Below, piece by piece: positions 2 to 11,803 of a stretch of 11,954 nucleotides of DNA (its first letter is position 1; the number at the start of each line of letters is the position of its first letter). Both the position numbers and the translations under genes were made by a program. The notes below the pieces were generated by a model. That model was not told the origin of the DNA. It made no database searches and saw only the letters and a list, made by a program, of their open reading frames with translations. Source of the DNA: Candidatus Hodarchaeota archaeon (GTDB taxonomy: Archaea > Asgardarchaeota > Heimdallarchaeia > Hodarchaeales > Hodarchaeaceae); assembly GCA_029856365.1 (NCBI GenBank), contig JAHQWW010000120.1, forward strand, positions 1 to 11,954. Reading direction: 5' to 3'.

Positions 2-3000
2 TGGTTAACGAAAGCTGCTGTAAGGTGTCTCGCAACTGATCCAAATAATGAATGGATAGCGGTCGGTGGTGGGTACCTATATGACAACGAGATCCATATT
101 TATCGCTGGAATGATTACACCAGAGAATACGATAAAGTGTGGGATTCTGGAGATCAGATCATTCAAGGAGATGTTCTTTCAATAGATTTTGGGGATACAG
201 ACCATAATGACTTTCTGGAAATTGTCTGTGGTAGTGCAGACGGTCATGTGTATGTTTTTGAACAAGAACATATTTACGATCCTTTTGACAACATGGAGAA
301 TCAATTTGTACATGTTTGGACCAGTCCTAAACTCCAACAAGTTTGGGGAGTCAAAATCGCTGATGTCGATAAAGATTACCTCCCTGATATTATTGCAGGG
401 TCTTGGGATGAAAAAGTCCATATCTATGAATACACAAACCATTCAGGATATCCATTCTCGAAACAACATTGGATTGAATACACAGAAAAAACAACCATTG
501 ATGTTGGTGAAAAGATATTTTCTATCGCCACAGGAGATACAAATTACAATGCCCTCCCTGAAATCATAGTTGGAACCCAAGAAGGGCGTGTTTATATCTA
601 TGAGAATAATGGTACCATTTTAACGATCAATGGTGAACCCTGGCCTCTCACACACGATAATTCCTACCGTTACCACTGGGATACTGGCAACACTAGTTGG
701 AAACCAATTCTCCGGATCATTGTAGATCAACTTGATGATGATTTAGCAGATGAAATTGTATATATTTCAGTAGGACAAAATGTTTTTGTTGTTAATTGGG
801 ATAAAACTATAGGTAGAAAGGGACGATATCTTACCCATCAGCTCTGGGAACCTTTAGATTCGTGGGAGCTTGGTGGTCTTGAAGGATTAGGTCATTATCT
901 CAATCACTACATCGATTGGATGACTTGGTCAAACAACAACAATACTGGTAACGACGATGAACACGTTTACAATGATGAGGGAGCATATAGGGTTCTAGAA
1001 CCATATCCATACCCATGGATGCCACAGTGGCCAAAAAATACTTCGATGGCAATAACGCGAAAACTTGATCCTTGGGGAGAAGGGCTAGATACTTGGATAG
1101 ACGGAGTTCATATTCAATATGACCCAGCTGAGAATTATACAACATTTGAGGCTTTAAATACCCTCGCAAGTGCCATCGTCGATTGGGGGAATGATGGAGA
1201 GGTTATGGGAGATGGATTATGGGCTATTCAAGAAGCAGACCTTGGTTACGATGTCATGTTGCGATTCCATTGGAACACAATACCAAATTTAAACAAAATT
1301 TCCTTCGAAATATCTCGAGGTGATGGTGAATGGGCATTAATACCTAAGGAGGATATTTCTTTAGCTCATGTAGCGTTGGATACTGAAGATGATGATCTTT
1401 GGATAGATATTGATCCTATTTTATCTAAGAATCATTGGGCATATTTCCGTTATATGCGGATTAATGTTACAAATAATGGTTACTTTAAAATTAAGGGTGG
1501 TTACGCTCCTATCCTCTATCGACCAATGGATACTGCTACTTCCATTACCATTGGTAACTTAGATTTAAGCTATTATAAAGCTTACACAACAGGCGAATCA
1601 GAGGGAAAGAAAATTGTCCTCGGCACATCTGACGGTAAGATACTAATGTTTGAATATAATTCAGCGACAAAGGGATATGATGTTCTATGGAATTCTTATA
1701 AGAACGATACTTATACTCAAGGTACAAATATCTGGGATATAGTGGAAGTAAAAAGTCCAGGGAAAATCCCCACTTGGTTGTATAACGAGTCTAGTAGCAA
1801 TATTTTAGCAGAAAATCTCGCTTGGACACTTCAGAACGAGGGATGGGGGAATTTTGCAGCTATGGATCATGCTAATTTAGTTAAGTCCTTCTTTGAAACT
1901 CTCTTCGGATTTGTAACTGATTTCTTCCCTGGCCTGGAAGGCGTTATTGAACTCAATATTCCTGCTAATGATCTAGTTGTGGGCACAGATACGGGTGATT
2001 TGGCCGTATTCTCAGCATTAACTGGTGAATATTCCGACATGGGAACGTACTTCTTCATCACTACTATTGCTGATCCATTCTATGATGATACGTCTGTTTC
2101 CCCCACTTTTGTGGACTTTCTAGACAGCAATCCTCTTGATATTCTTGATCTTATGAAAGAGGAAACAATGTTGCTCAGTTGGGTTAAGAATGACCAATTG
2201 TATAATCCAGAGGAATTTGGAAGTAGAGCATTTGCTGGGATTGATGTTTATACTTATGAATTTCCTACTGTAACCCTTCCTCTTCCTCCACCATACAATC
2301 AGTATGGAAACTTCATGATGAGATTTGAGCTAGCTGAAAGGGAAATTACTGGATTACTTTCACGTGCCTTAGAAAAGTCCATGAATATCCCCGATATCGC
2401 AACTGGAGATGTTGATGGTGATGGTGATAAGGATCTTATCCTGACAAATGGACGAATTTATTACCTTGAAAATATTATGAATAACATATTCATCTTAGAA
2501 CCCGAATATTTCCTAGATCTCAACCTTCAAACCACGAATAAGCTCTATACCTCTCCCGAACTTTATGATTTTGATGGAGATGGTGATTTAGACCTCTCAG
2601 TTGGCTTTTCTAACAGAGAAGGTGCGACATACTTCGAAAACATTGGCCATCGTTGGGCTCCAGAATGGAAAGAAAACAAGTGGCTTTTTACAAACTCATG
2701 GGGTGGATTATGGTATAACAATTTAACCTCCCCGACATTTGCCTTTGATGATTACGGTCGTGTCAGTCATCTAACTACTTATAATAATTATACAGAGGAT
2801 ATCGTCCAACTTAAAGCCGAATATGAAAACCATAATGCTTTCGTCATCGGAACTAACCCTATAATTGCACGTTTAGAGATGAATTTGAAATCTGGTACTG
2901 ATTCTCATGGGAACATGCTTGCTAACTATGGTTACCATGTGTTTGAAACTTGGAATACTGAAGCTGAATTAGCTCGCTGGACATTAACGCTTAAAACAGG

Positions 3001-6000
3001 TGATATGGATCAAGATGGGCGAGGAGAAGTAATTGTTGGCGACTATGACAACAATATGTACGTATTTGAACACTTAACGAATAATACGTATAAACGAGCT
3101 TACCGTGGACAAGATATGACCCATACTGAGCTCTCAGCCACCTCACCATACGCTTGGCAAGAATTAGAGGGTGTGAGCGGTACCTTCTATCGTACAATTT
3201 GGGATCACATCGAAGAATTAGTAATAGGATTAGATATGGATAATGATGGCTTCCTTGAAATGGTTGCTACTGCTGGCTTATCGATTTTCGTTTGGGAACA
3301 AAGAAATGATGGATTTGTCAGTATAGACGATGAATATACCCTCATTTGGCAAGCTGATCTGAAACAGTCTGCTTGGGCACCTCTCTTCAAAGCATTAGAA
3401 ATCGATCATTTCACTGCAGCTGCTTTCGGTGGTGACTTAGACTATAATGGTTATGGCGAATTTATACTTGCAGCGGGCAGTTTCTTATTCGTTTTCGAAT
3501 CGAATGGCGCGGATCAATTTAATGACAACTTCCTTGTTAATCCATACCCCGTACGTGGACGATATTTTGTACCAGGCAATCCGATATCATCACCTGCCGT
3601 AAGAACGTTATCTATTGAAGCCATAGCGGTGGGTGACACTGATAATGATTCTTTAAATGAGATTATCATTGGAGGTGTCAATAAAACTTTATGGGGTCAA
3701 TATAATGGATTTGTATGCATTTTAGAGAACCAAATTGGCACCTATGATTACACTTGGTGGGCACCAAATCGTCTTATGGAAGATAATCCTGTTTACGACT
3801 TAGAAATTGATAATCAAGATTATGATCACTATAAAGAGATCATTGTTGGGACGTTTAAAGGCATAGTGATTTATGAAAACGCACCAGGCAGTTCTAGAGA
3901 CAACAATTATATCGAACGATCAATTCTTACCAGTTATGTTAATTTTCCGTTTATTAAATTAAAGCAAATGTTTGATCTAGAAGCAAAATACCCATTAGCG
4001 CTAAGGAACACTGATTTTCTTGAGTTACAAAATGATCACCCTGACGGCGATTTCCACAGAGGTGATTGGATTCAAATTTTCAAAGCTGGCAATCGACTCT
4101 TCTGGGCCACAAGTGATGATAATGGCACCACTTGGAACCAACACCTAATGGTAACAACTAATCAACTCACTATTTCCGGCGGTACATACATTAATACTAT
4201 TTATGAATATCATCCCTCTATATACCAAACGCGTGATGGGCGTGTTTGGTTGTCATTTACAGGAAAGCTAACGTTCTTAATAGGTCCCGGACCAGCACCT
4301 GTTGAAGGAATCTGGTTGTTACATCTAGAAAAAGTTTCAAATACATATTATTGGAGAAATGCTGAAGGTAATGTCGCCATCGATGGGAGCTCCCCTGCAT
4401 ATTTATTATACAATCCTAGTATTTGGGATTATCATAACAATACGGAGCAAGGTGTAGCTATTTCCTACATGAATAGTTCAGATGGAGGTATTTACTGGAA
4501 AGGCGACTTTAATAGCCCCGCATCAGCCCCTCTAGGGGATTACGGACAGATTCCTAACATTGGAAAAGATCCAAGCACAAATAAGTATCAAGCCTTTTAT
4601 CACGATGCAATACGGTCTTTCAGCGATAAAGTCATTGTGGTTTTCAGTGGTCGTTGTTATGCTGAAGCCAAAGTCGACCTTGATTTGTGGATTGCTAAAT
4701 CAAATAGTACACCTATCTGGGATAATCAATCCCGATATTCTAGAGCAACAATAGACGGTATTGATGAATTAAATCCATCAATCACCCAAACAGTCACTCC
4801 AGATCATACTCTTCTAGTAATATTTGAAGCTGATGGGTATAGCCCCTCTGGTGCATTACAAGTGACTTATTCTAAGGATGATGGTGAAAGCTGGCGAGAC
4901 CCAGAACCAATTTCAACAACTCCACCTTTTGCTGAATATATCCACTATCCAAAATTCGGTTTCAGCCTTCTTGTCTTAAAGGATGATCCCTATGTTCTTG
5001 TTACTTCTCTTATTTCAGTAGGGCCAGCAATTACCGCACATTATGAAGGTGGATTTGCATACTCTTTCATGGCACAATATAATTTGATTGGTCTCGGACA
5101 CCTTTCAGTTTCTGGTCGAACTTCATCGCTCAAAACCGCAGATCGCGGTTATTCAGCAGCAGGGACAACCACAACAACTACTTACACAACAGGTGATTTA
5201 TCAGCACATTCAGGAATGGTTCGTCAAATTGGTGGTAGTTTGACTACTGGAGGAGGCATGGTTAGTTATCAAGGAAAAGTGATAGGCTCCTATTCTACTA
5301 CCACAAATGATGGAGGTGGTGGTAGTGCTCTGTATTACGCAGCCGCTTCTCCTGCCGTGGTAAACTACAATGTACCGATTGTAACAGGGGAAGAAGAAGG
5401 TGTTGGTAGTTATGGTGGAAATATCCTTTCATATCAAGCAGATGCAACGGGGACTGATGATCCTGGAAGTGATGAGAATACAGGTGGCGGGTATCCTCCA
5501 GGGCAAGGGGGCGGGATGATGCTAGCTGCTGCTTCCAATTATGATGGCTTTAATTTCCACTCTGATACAAGTCAAACGGATCGTGGTTACTTCAACAATA
5601 TCTTCTTTGGTTTGAACCCCTCCTCAAATTTCACATTATTTGATTTTAAAGAAGTCAGGGCACTTAGTACTGGTGATTCAGATAAAGATTACCGTCGTGA
5701 AATTGCCATTGCCTCTGGTAATCAGGCTTATCTTGTGGAAGTGGCACGAACAGGTGGTTCTGATGACCCCGAAGATCAAGTACTTTTCTATTATCAACCC
5801 TGGTATAGCGATGGTTTAGCAACAGAAACTACCGATATTGAGCTTTACGACGCTAATAGTAATGGTATGGATGAAGTTATTGTTTCTTGTATTGAGGGTA
5901 ATGTTTATAGCTTTGAGGGACTCAATACCAAACCTCCAGCCACTAATTATCTATTCCTTGATGGAATGGGGTCTTTCGATCCATTATGGTCTGATGTTTC

Positions 6001-11749: not shown

Positions 11750-11763
11750 TATCCCTCCTTCTT

Positions 11764-11803
11764 AGCTAGGTTATTTCCTAGCTCTTTTTTTTCTTCGTTT
11801 TTT
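11764..11803 (+). terminator. Hairpin plus oligo-T transcription terminator
   Basis: AGCTAGG-TTATTT-CCTAGCT (11764-11783) is followed by T8 (11785-11792) and T6 (11798-11803). It begins 14 nt after the gene 2 stop. Confidence 0.8.

Follow-up and report, generated by a model that had tools for sequence, protein, structure and literature searches.

How does a protein of about 3000 residues stay at the cell surface if its gene stops directly after the last propeller blade? The question is raised by an 11,954-bp stretch of DNA (the window), which is an entire contig (G000:C149; GenBank JAHQWW010000120.1) of a Candidatus Hodarchaeota genome that we number G000. The window carries two genes on one strand: gene 1, for a giant protein with FG-GAP propellers that we call B, and gene 2, for a protein with beta-sandwich domains and a transmembrane (TM) helix that we call C. 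The original prediction for this locus was that the two resemble a "split" integrin alpha, with an unanchored head encoded by gene 1 and a membrane-anchored stalk encoded by gene 2. We found that they are the second and third genes of a three-gene surface cassette, A-B-C, of Hodarchaeales-type archaea, and that B once had an anchor of its own, which has been lost repeatedly. We propose that B may now be held by its cassette partners.

Loss of the membrane anchor of B

In the window, gene 1 ends with ...YILYGQEEYLIEQK-TAG. Within the last 21 residues, the 19-residue Kyte-Doolittle hydropathy does not exceed −0.23. A TM helix is therefore absent, and by hydropathy there is no hydrophobic segment near the C-terminus that could be a TM anchor or a PGF-CTERM-type sorting tail, just as the original prediction had noticed. 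An assembly error does not explain the stop after the last blade, because two independent assemblies (JGI 3300028897 and ENA ERZ27275847) have this junction as well.

Elsewhere, B is often anchored. A C-terminal TM helix and a basic tail are present in 8 of the 13 C-termini of B that we examined (G009, G011, G019, G003, G018, G016, G012, and contig L047). These proteins continue for 60–80 amino acids (aa) past the last blade, with a glycine-rich or polar linker of 40–60 residues, the helix (hydropathy 1.96–2.35), and a K/R-rich end. Both copies of B in G023, from the sister family, also have hydrophobic C-terminal segments. The copies without a TM helix end in different ways. In G000, G007, and the ENA contig L048, B ends at EYLIEQK or EYLIEQKVVSR; in G010, it ends within the glycine-rich linker; and in G017, an in-frame deletion of about 27 residues has removed the hydrophobic core (hydropathy 0.5) and left the KRRLR end in place. 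In a maximum-likelihood tree of C, G017 nests with the TM-bearing G009 and G011 (100/100), G000 and G007 together are sister to them (97/98), and G010 falls outside, on a long branch whose placement is poorly supported. Given these positions and the three different molecular lesions, the anchor of B was probably lost three independent times. Gene 2 is retained in every anchor-less lineage.

The anchor-less B is a functional protein and not the product of a decaying gene. Between G000 and G007, which is the one pair in which we measured selection, the synonymous divergence (dS) is 0.61 and the ratio of nonsynonymous to synonymous divergence (dN/dS) is 0.118 for B and 0.173 for C, and a ratio of 0.118 at this dS implies purifying selection on B. 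The TM helix and the juxtamembrane tail of C are conserved, as are those of A; the TM helix of B is poorly conserved. Thus, the description of B as an unanchored head is right for this species, but it is a derived state: orthologues have an N-terminal signal sequence, and the ancestral B anchored itself. Because the ancestral B was complete and self-anchored, gene 2 is not a stalk that was split off from gene 1.

One explanation for the losses is that the anchor-less B is a released protein, either matrix-like or soluble (for example, one that binds or degrades glycans), and that C is a separate receptor or stalk. This would suit a protein that ends without an anchor or a sorting signal. Also, B has a propeller of the BNR/sialidase type, a beta-sandwich insert, and a paralogue, B2, with C-type lectin domains, which points to carbohydrate recognition. 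We consider this explanation rather unlikely because, anchor aside, the two forms of B are orthologues under equal constraint (dN/dS of 0.12) and because the tight coupling to C, described below, was kept in all of the anchor-less species. It would also be surprising for a protein of 3000 aa to switch from anchored to released, probably three times, if anchoring mattered.

Another possibility is that the stop codon of B is read through, by pyrrolysine or a suppressor. In three of the five anchor-less copies (G000, positions 8870–8893; G007, L011:14886–14900; and G010, L042), genes 1 and 2 share a reading frame, with just one TAG between them, so that read-through would yield a B-C fusion protein. 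We rejected this as extremely improbable. The genome has no PylS above the cut-off (25.7 vs 178 bits), we found no tRNA-CUA (in an incomplete search that detected 15 tRNAs), and TAG ends 19% of its long open reading frames. In L048, from a close relative, the stop is a TGA four codons later and C is in a different frame. Furthermore, C has its own ribosome-binding site, and a fusion protein without the TM helix of B would be expected to place the ectodomain of C on the wrong side of the membrane. We read the shared frame as a coincidence and the TAG as probably part of the ribosome-binding region.

The A-B-C cassette and the attachment of B

The genome (4.24 Mb in 204 contigs, 35% GC, 83.6% complete) is that of a Hodarchaeales-type Asgard archaeon. 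Relatives of gene 2 are encoded on contigs of metagenome-assembled genomes from Hodarchaeota, Heimdallarchaeota, Hermodarchaeota, and Promethearchaeota, including the complete chromosome CP070695, and the databases label them as hypothetical or PPC-domain proteins of "Hodarchaeales" or "Kariarchaeaceae." An Asgard host had been guessed before its origin was known, and the Hodarchaeota, Heimdallarchaeota, and Promethearchaeota relatives bear the guess out.

In other genomes (G007, G009, G010, G011, G016, and G003), a large gene on the same strand, which we call A, abuts B upstream. Complete copies of A encode 2205–2219 aa, including a TM helix, and share a conserved ...K-E-G-G-L end; scans of the G009 copy and of a fusion protein from G122 (see below) confirmed TSP3_bac repeats. 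At both of the A-B junctions that we inspected (G007 and G009), the stop of A lies 1–2 nucleotides (nt) from the start of B. In the window, gene 1 is cut short by the contig end, so that about 85–100 N-terminal residues of B are missing, among them the signal sequence. A 26.4-kb contig of the same species from another sample, with an identical C, carries the 56-aa end of a gene, B (3041 aa), C (952 aa), a spacer of 415 nt, and B2 (3275 aa). The upstream A was not found in G000, where we found only a more distant copy (47–58% identity to A from G007) at the start of contig C102.

B and C seem to share a transcript, and their translation seems to be coupled. Where we read the junction in TM-bearing orthologues, the stop of B overlaps or abuts the start of C (CAATGA in G009), and the codons for the K/R-K-R-R end of B are also the GGAGG ribosome-binding site of C (K-K-R-R in G009; R-R-K-R, of the same kind, in L047). 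G017, which has lost the TM helix, keeps a TAATG junction and the same ribosome-binding site. In all of the junctions that we examined, a GGTGA or GGAGG motif precedes gene 2. In the window, gene 2 could start at GTG 8882 (955 aa) or at ATG 8891 (952 aa), which gives the spacing of 9–18 nt that was reported originally. The ATG is the more likely start because AGGTGA lies 5 nt upstream of it, and the gap is then 18 nt. The only runs of six or more Ts on the + strand of the window are at 11785–11803, beginning 36 nt past the stop of gene 2, as expected if the lone terminator noted earlier is real (both strands together have 6 such runs, vs about 17 expected from shuffles). The coupled junctions in the orthologues and the single terminator after gene 2 support the view of the two genes as an operon-like unit.

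B and C are also inherited together. They are adjacent wherever both are on one contig, in the two Hodarchaeales families that we sampled, and G023 has two separate B-C pairs, each adjacent. Within the genus, 10–11 genomes have both B and C and 8 have neither. (The two or three ambiguous cases involve contig ends or, in G001, a decayed C.) The relic in G001 (G001:C3:69131–69451) comprises 112 residues of C with an internal TAA; B was not found in that genome, so this looks like a decayed cassette.

Across the phylum, the pattern is different. The gene 1 family, as defined by the N-terminal propeller of B, is present in 72 of the 300 Asgard genomes that we sampled (24%). Matches to gene 2 beyond the level of the PPC domain are confined to two families (f1 and f2) and 15 of the 300 genomes, some of them with fragments only. 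The three cassettes that we inspected in other families of Heimdallarchaeia (G024, G038, and G026) are A-B or B-A without C, and there B has its own TM helix. As B is so much more widespread than C, we conclude that C is a lineage-specific third gene that was added to an older A-B cassette. Conservation of the gene pair, which the original prediction had proposed to check, is seen within two Hodarchaeales families of those sampled; most of the Asgard genomes with B have no C.

In G122, A (with TSP3 repeats) and B (with FG-GAP repeats) are fused in a single open reading frame of 4897 aa (L046:2628–17321, − strand). The fusion protein keeps the TM helix of A (around residue 2094) and the signal-type segment of B (around residue 2180), which would be consistent with a topology in which the ectodomains of both A and B are outside. 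Open reading frames of similar length (4716 and 4885 aa) are present in two more genomes of this genus.

To account for the loss of the anchor, we propose that B is exported via an N-terminal signal sequence that would be cleaved, and that it displays several FG-GAP propellers with calcium loops, a BNR-like propeller, and a Gly/Thr-rich linker. C would be a type I membrane protein, with its six PPC-type sandwiches probably making up a calcium-stiffened stalk, and A would be a membrane protein with TSP3 repeats, encoded just upstream, off this contig. The ancestral B would have had its own, poorly conserved C-terminal TM anchor. After this anchor was deleted in this species and its closest relatives, B would be kept at the surface by non-covalent, probably calcium-dependent contacts with the anchored A and/or C, and the heteromeric, calcium-dependent assembly would be a coat or adhesion structure. 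We see an even chance that the core of this proposal is correct, i.e., that A, B, and C are subunits of one surface assembly in which B is held non-covalently by A and/or C. The recurrent loss of the anchor fits tethering by partners, and the lectin, BNR, and jelly-roll parts of these proteins hint at glycan recognition.

A related question is which partner holds B. C is favored by its invariable adjacency and coupling to B, and also by its rate of evolution, which is similar to that of the C-terminal half of B (45–60% identity, vs 80–95% for much of the N-terminal half). Nevertheless, we are doubtful that C specifically is the tether: A appears to be at least as good a candidate, given the phylum-wide association of A with B and the A-B fusion in G122.

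Alternatively, B could attach itself at its other end. If its N-terminal segment is an uncleaved signal anchor, then the C-terminal TM helix would be redundant and could be lost, and C would be an independent neighbor. In every full-length orthologue of B (3063–3178 aa), a basic n-region at the start leads into some 15–16 hydrophobic residues; in the G122 fusion, this hydrophobic segment sits about 65 residues past the TM helix of A and must cross the membrane if B is to be outside; and the C-terminal TM helix, as noted above, is poorly conserved. We nevertheless think that self-attachment is unlikely. After a short hydrophobic core come Pro/Gly and small residues (for example, P-M-S-A-S-G in G009), which suggests a typical cleaved Sec signal. 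Also, a signal anchor would not explain the constant adjacency and translational coupling of C to B, or why the two are kept or lost together within the genus.

Several points weigh against the idea that B is held by its cassette partners. B may instead stay attached by an uncleaved signal anchor, or it could be released on purpose. Its placement at the surface is deduced from hydropathy, the density of glycosylation sequons, and domain types; calcium binding by B and C is deduced from motifs; and a B-C or B-A complex is likewise a deduction from the sequences. The structural models of B and C are only moderately confident (mean predicted local distance difference test score, or pLDDT, of 71 and 66, respectively). 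Among the longer proteins related to C, there is no B-C fused form, which is weak evidence. Finally, most of the Asgard genomes that have B do not have C, so C is not the general tether of B.

We made three side observations about neighboring genes. First, G000 has a second copy of the cassette, with B2 as an open frame of 3313 aa on contig C159 and, possibly, the distant A-type frame on C102 mentioned above. In G009, the second unit lies after the first; its B2 has both C-type lectin and lamin-tail domains and is accompanied by A2, a beta-helix/TPR protein, and a TPR protein. Second, in the 415-nt spacer between gene 2 and B2, a 19-nt motif (ATTTGGWCATAATATTTGT) is present in two direct copies, 23 nt apart (11883–11901 and 11906–11924). 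The paired motif may bind a regulator of the B2 unit. Third, the C protein of G017 (L021:10001–12922) has an extended Lys/Pro/Ser-rich tail with K-A-S-P-K-type repeats and lacks the usual K-K-P-P end.

Domains of B and C and the comparison with integrins

The features of the window are listed in Table 1. In gene 1, a loose calcium-loop pattern occurs 19 times, vs 1.2 ± 1.1 times in 500 shuffles, and the strict pattern D-x-[DN]-x-[DN]-G-x-x-[DE] occurs 11 times, vs 0.08 times in shuffles, so the original prediction was correct that B is packed with integrin-alpha-type loops. Overall, gene 1 matches the Pfam families FG-GAP_3 (110.8 bits) and FG-GAP (66.8 bits), with local matches to the BBS7 propeller (38–40 bits, cut-off 27), BBS2_Mid, and Itfg2 and a weak match to BNR_2. 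We do not consider the BBS7, BBS2, and Itfg2 matches to be a eukaryote-type signal, as they cover just one or two blades and these profiles belong to the same propeller clan.

Table 1. Positions of the features in the window, with residue numbers of B as encoded in the window
Feature	Position	Strand	Description
Gene 1 (protein B)	2..8872	+	single open frame, 2956 aa; 5' end cut by contig end
First propeller region of B (residues 1-300)	2..901	+	FG-GAP_3 35.8 bits; Beta-prop_BBS7 38 bits (cut-off 27); WD40 35 bits
Region of B without family match (residues 301-790)	902..2371	+	no Pfam match
FG-GAP propeller region of B (residues 791-1300)	2372..3901	+	FG-GAP_3 50.7 bits; FG-GAP 43.6 bits; six calcium-loop motifs
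BNR/sialidase-like propeller region of B (residues 1301-1720)	3902..5161	+	BNR_2 32.0 bits (cut-off 31.4); three Asp boxes
Low-complexity linker of B, Gly/Thr/Ser-rich (residues 1721-1930)	5162..5791	+	G 17%, T 10%, S 10%; no significant Pfam match
FG-GAP propeller region of B with beta-sandwich insert	5792..7648	+	FG-GAP_3 34.1 bits (residues 1931-2260); insert at about 6845-7243
Last propeller of B	7649..8848	+	FG-GAP 69.5 bits (residues 2451-2956); five calcium-loop motifs; eight four-stranded blades in model
Stop codon of B (TAG)	8870..8872	+	directly after last blade; ancestral linker, TM helix, and basic tail absent
Shine-Dalgarno-like AGGTGA	8880..8885	+	5 nt before ATG of gene 2
Gene 2 (protein C)	8891..11749	+	952 aa; predicted type I membrane protein: signal sequence, six PPC-type beta-sandwiches, Gly-rich TM helix, conserved cytoplasmic tail
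Six tandem PPC-type jelly-roll domains of C (D1-D6)	9059..11470	+	acidic D-D-x-x-E-x-N-D type motif at each junction
TM helix of C (EVLIPLVIGGAIIGGGAAGGLY)	11531..11596	+	helix in model; Gly-rich
Cytoplasmic tail of C	11597..11746	+	Lys/Arg-rich; conserved juxtamembrane K-K-T-G-x-L-x-K...F-R-D-R-F-G
Terminator	11764..11803	+	hairpin at 11764-11783, then T8 and T6 runs at 11785-11803

The first propeller region is the best-conserved part of B, with 78–97% identity to other species of the genus and 50–57% identity across the phylum. This region and the FG-GAP region at 2372–3901 are unusually constrained (dN/dS of 0.03; within the genus, identity is 78–97%, vs 44–82% for C). The calcium-loop motifs of the latter region are at residues 803, 856, 1001, 1078, 1145, and 1212. 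The next region passes the gathering score of BNR_2 (PF13088), but it is a borderline case (32.0 vs 31.4 bits); its S-x-D-x-G-x-x-W motifs, or Asp boxes, are at residues 1371, 1492, and 1624. When the protein was scanned in pieces, residues 2261–2450 had no Pfam family match.

An AlphaFold2 model of residues 1930–2956 of B (mf049c7629e53; 10-sequence alignment, mean pLDDT 70.8) is all-beta, with a propeller that is interrupted by the insert (model residues 353–485), followed by an eight-bladed last propeller. For the last propeller (model residues 621–1020), the best alignments among the matches listed are those with Rsa4, Sqt1, BamB, and Tako8, a designed protein (Z of 28–31, root-mean-square deviation of 2.6–3.2 Å over 312–350 residues). 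With the whole 1027-residue model, Foldseek gave generic matches to the multi-propeller proteins DDB1, SF3b130, and CPSF160 (TM-scores of 0.16–0.25). Integrin alpha is absent from the best 50 rows listed, both for the whole model and for the structure search with the last propeller. By phmmer, B has no match among PDB sequences at E ≤ 0.01. A profile of the C-terminal third of B finds repeat-level relatives only, led by a secreted esterase (E = 1.9e-4), BBS2 (3.2e-4), and PQQ dehydrogenases; integrin alpha-V ranks after these, with E of 0.04–0.3 over about 70 residues. Our assessment is that B has at least four FG-GAP-type propeller regions plus a BNR-like one and that, judging from these matches, it is a multi-propeller giant of the broad FG-GAP/PQQ-like superfamily, without special affinity to integrin alpha.

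C has the layout that was originally described for gene 2: tandem beta-sandwiches (six of them), a single TM helix (rich in glycine), and a basic cytoplasmic tail. The AlphaFold2 model of C (m6090dcdabfcb; 9 sequences, mean pLDDT 66, domains 70–85) has a signal-type helix, the six beta-sandwich domains, a linker, a helix over EVLIPLVIGGAIIGGGAAGGLY, and a basic tail that is helical and then disordered. Whole C scores 37.6 bits against Pfam PPC (PF04151; cut-off 25.9), D5 alone 28.4 bits, and D4 13.7 bits. Because a profile made from D5 orthologues picks up every one of the six domains (i-E between 1.6e-4 and 4.6e-9), these are tandem repeats of one PPC-type unit. The acidic residues of the D-D-x-x-E-x-N-D type at the junctions are invariant in alignments of C orthologues. 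In PPC and collagen-binding domains, an acidic E-x-N-D type motif forms the site at which calcium binds and stiffens the linker, and the domain junctions of C may bind calcium with the same effect. The best PDB matches of the model by Foldseek are CUB proteins (cubilin, neuropilin, and enteropeptidase), reelin repeats, and the tandem collagen-binding domain of ColG (5iku). No integrin leg is among the best 50 rows listed, and a profile of C has no match among PDB sequences at E ≤ 0.01.

In the TM helix of C, residues G894–G896, A898, and Y902 are invariant or nearly so, and in the tail, T907, G908, and K912 are invariant (in one alignment of orthologues); most orthologues end in K-K-P-P. Sequons (N-x-S/T) occur at 2.42 per 100 aa in C and 1.18 per 100 aa in B, vs 0.78 in the long open reading frames of the genome (three times and 1.5 times background, respectively), which fits glycosylated, extracellular B and C.

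Two further similarities of C deserve mention. Two of its orthologues (P0009 and P0010) have a faint Pfam match to EMP24_GP25L, a GOLD-type beta-sandwich, which probably reflects merely a shared beta-sandwich character. Also, the TM helix and Y-x-x-K-K-T-G-x-L-x-K tail of C (11531–11680) resemble the TM helix and tail of A in genomes without C (G024, L035; G038, L034), where the motif is G-G-G-x-A-x-G...Y-x-x-R-A-G-K-[FL]...L-K; in this genus, A ends in ...K-E-G-G-L instead. Possibly, C acquired its tail module from A, but the motif is too short for proof. We also considered whether C derives from the C-terminal part of A and rejected this: BLASTP of C against A proteins gave nothing significant, and the likeness is limited to the short TM/tail motif.

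Is there any case for a split integrin alpha, with gene 1 for the head and gene 2 for the leg, TM helix, and tail, that is related to its eukaryotic counterpart or mimics it? The host is an Asgard archaeon, B has FG-GAP repeats with D-x-D-x-D-G type calcium loops and marginal profile matches to integrin alpha-V, and C has a small-residue-rich, single-pass TM helix and a short basic tail. Like integrin alpha/beta, the cassette possibly forms a heteromeric, calcium-dependent surface complex. We consider a split integrin very improbable, however. The ancestral B had its own TM helix, so nothing was split. Integrin alpha has a single seven-bladed head; B has four FG-GAP-type regions and a BNR-like one, and the last is modelled with eight blades (pLDDT 71). 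The sequence relation is at the level of single repeats, with alpha-V scoring no better than the secreted esterase, BBS2, or PQQ dehydrogenases. The domains of C are PPC repeats, similar to CUB domains, and not thigh or calf domains: Integrin_A_Ig (PF08441) is absent from both genes and was not found in the genome, in a search without a positive control. The tail of C lacks the G-F-F-K-R motif and reads A-A-K-K-T-G-A-L-E-K... after the TM helix. As for a beta subunit, a Pfam scan agreed with the original prediction that there is no vWA gene in the window, vWA is absent from the cassette genes that we examined, and Integrin_beta (PF00362) has no match in B or C, and none turned up in the 83.6%-complete genome, in a search whose controls included no positive. 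Finally, among 300 genomes, full-length C is limited to two Hodarchaeales families. The likeness to integrins goes no further than FG-GAP calcium-loop repeats and single-pass anchors with small-residue TM helices. The caveat in the original prediction that homology to integrins is not implied was well placed, and the architecture itself is unsupported.

The closer relatives of B and C are more ordinary. By its domain matches, C looks like a bona fide PPC-repeat protein. As in the s3a-s3b collagen-binding domains of clostridial ColG, each domain begins with an acidic E-x-N-D type motif; the differences are that six copies form the whole ectodomain of C, that it has a conserved cytoplasmic tail, and that no protease or other catalytic domain is attached. 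B, in turn, looks like an FG-GAP/VCBS-type propeller protein, in the same clan as ITFG2, FAM234, and BBS2/BBS7. Unlike those proteins, B would be extracellular, given its signal sequence and sequons, and it belongs to a conserved cassette. Within Asgard archaea, the A-B(-C) cassette of this species is set apart by a B that lacks its own anchor, a state that probably arose three times in the genus.

A literature search found no published description of the A-B-C cassette, and a search on Asgard archaea plus FG-GAP found no paper. A passage in a BMC Biology paper (PMC9258230) credits Liu et al. (2021) with "integrin repeat-containing ESPs" (eukaryotic signature proteins) in Asgard genomes; the available main text of the Liu et al. 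(2021) preprint does not mention integrin.

Implications for the surface of Hodarchaeales

Cultured Asgard cells have an amorphous protein layer and no crystalline S-layer, and the components of the layer were not named (bioRxiv 10.1101/2025.11.06.686947). The A-B-C cassette is a concrete candidate for part of such an amorphous coat in Hodarchaeales: its three genes, each giant or large, are coupled, genomes keep or lose them as a set, and all of their products have features typical of exported proteins.

What is new here is the recurrent loss of the anchor of B, which is otherwise an ordinary member of the cassette, so this is a modest increment. The losses act as a natural experiment, in which a protein of 3000 aa probably lost its anchor three times and its cassette partners were always retained. 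This is the first sequence-based argument that the proteins of the cassette work as an assembly, and it indicates which species and which subunit are suited to a pull-down experiment. It also removes a tempting headline, that of a split integrin in an Asgard archaeon.

A more ambitious version of our proposal is that A, B, and C form a single non-covalent, calcium-dependent complex in which the anchored subunits hold B, whose own anchor could for that reason be lost, and the conserved TM helices and tails of C and A couple the complex to the cell interior. We regard this version, taken as a whole, as quite improbable. If true, the complex would be functionally analogous to heteromeric adhesion receptors of the integrin type, and it would be a candidate for the surface layer of the archaea that some analyses place closest to eukaryotes.

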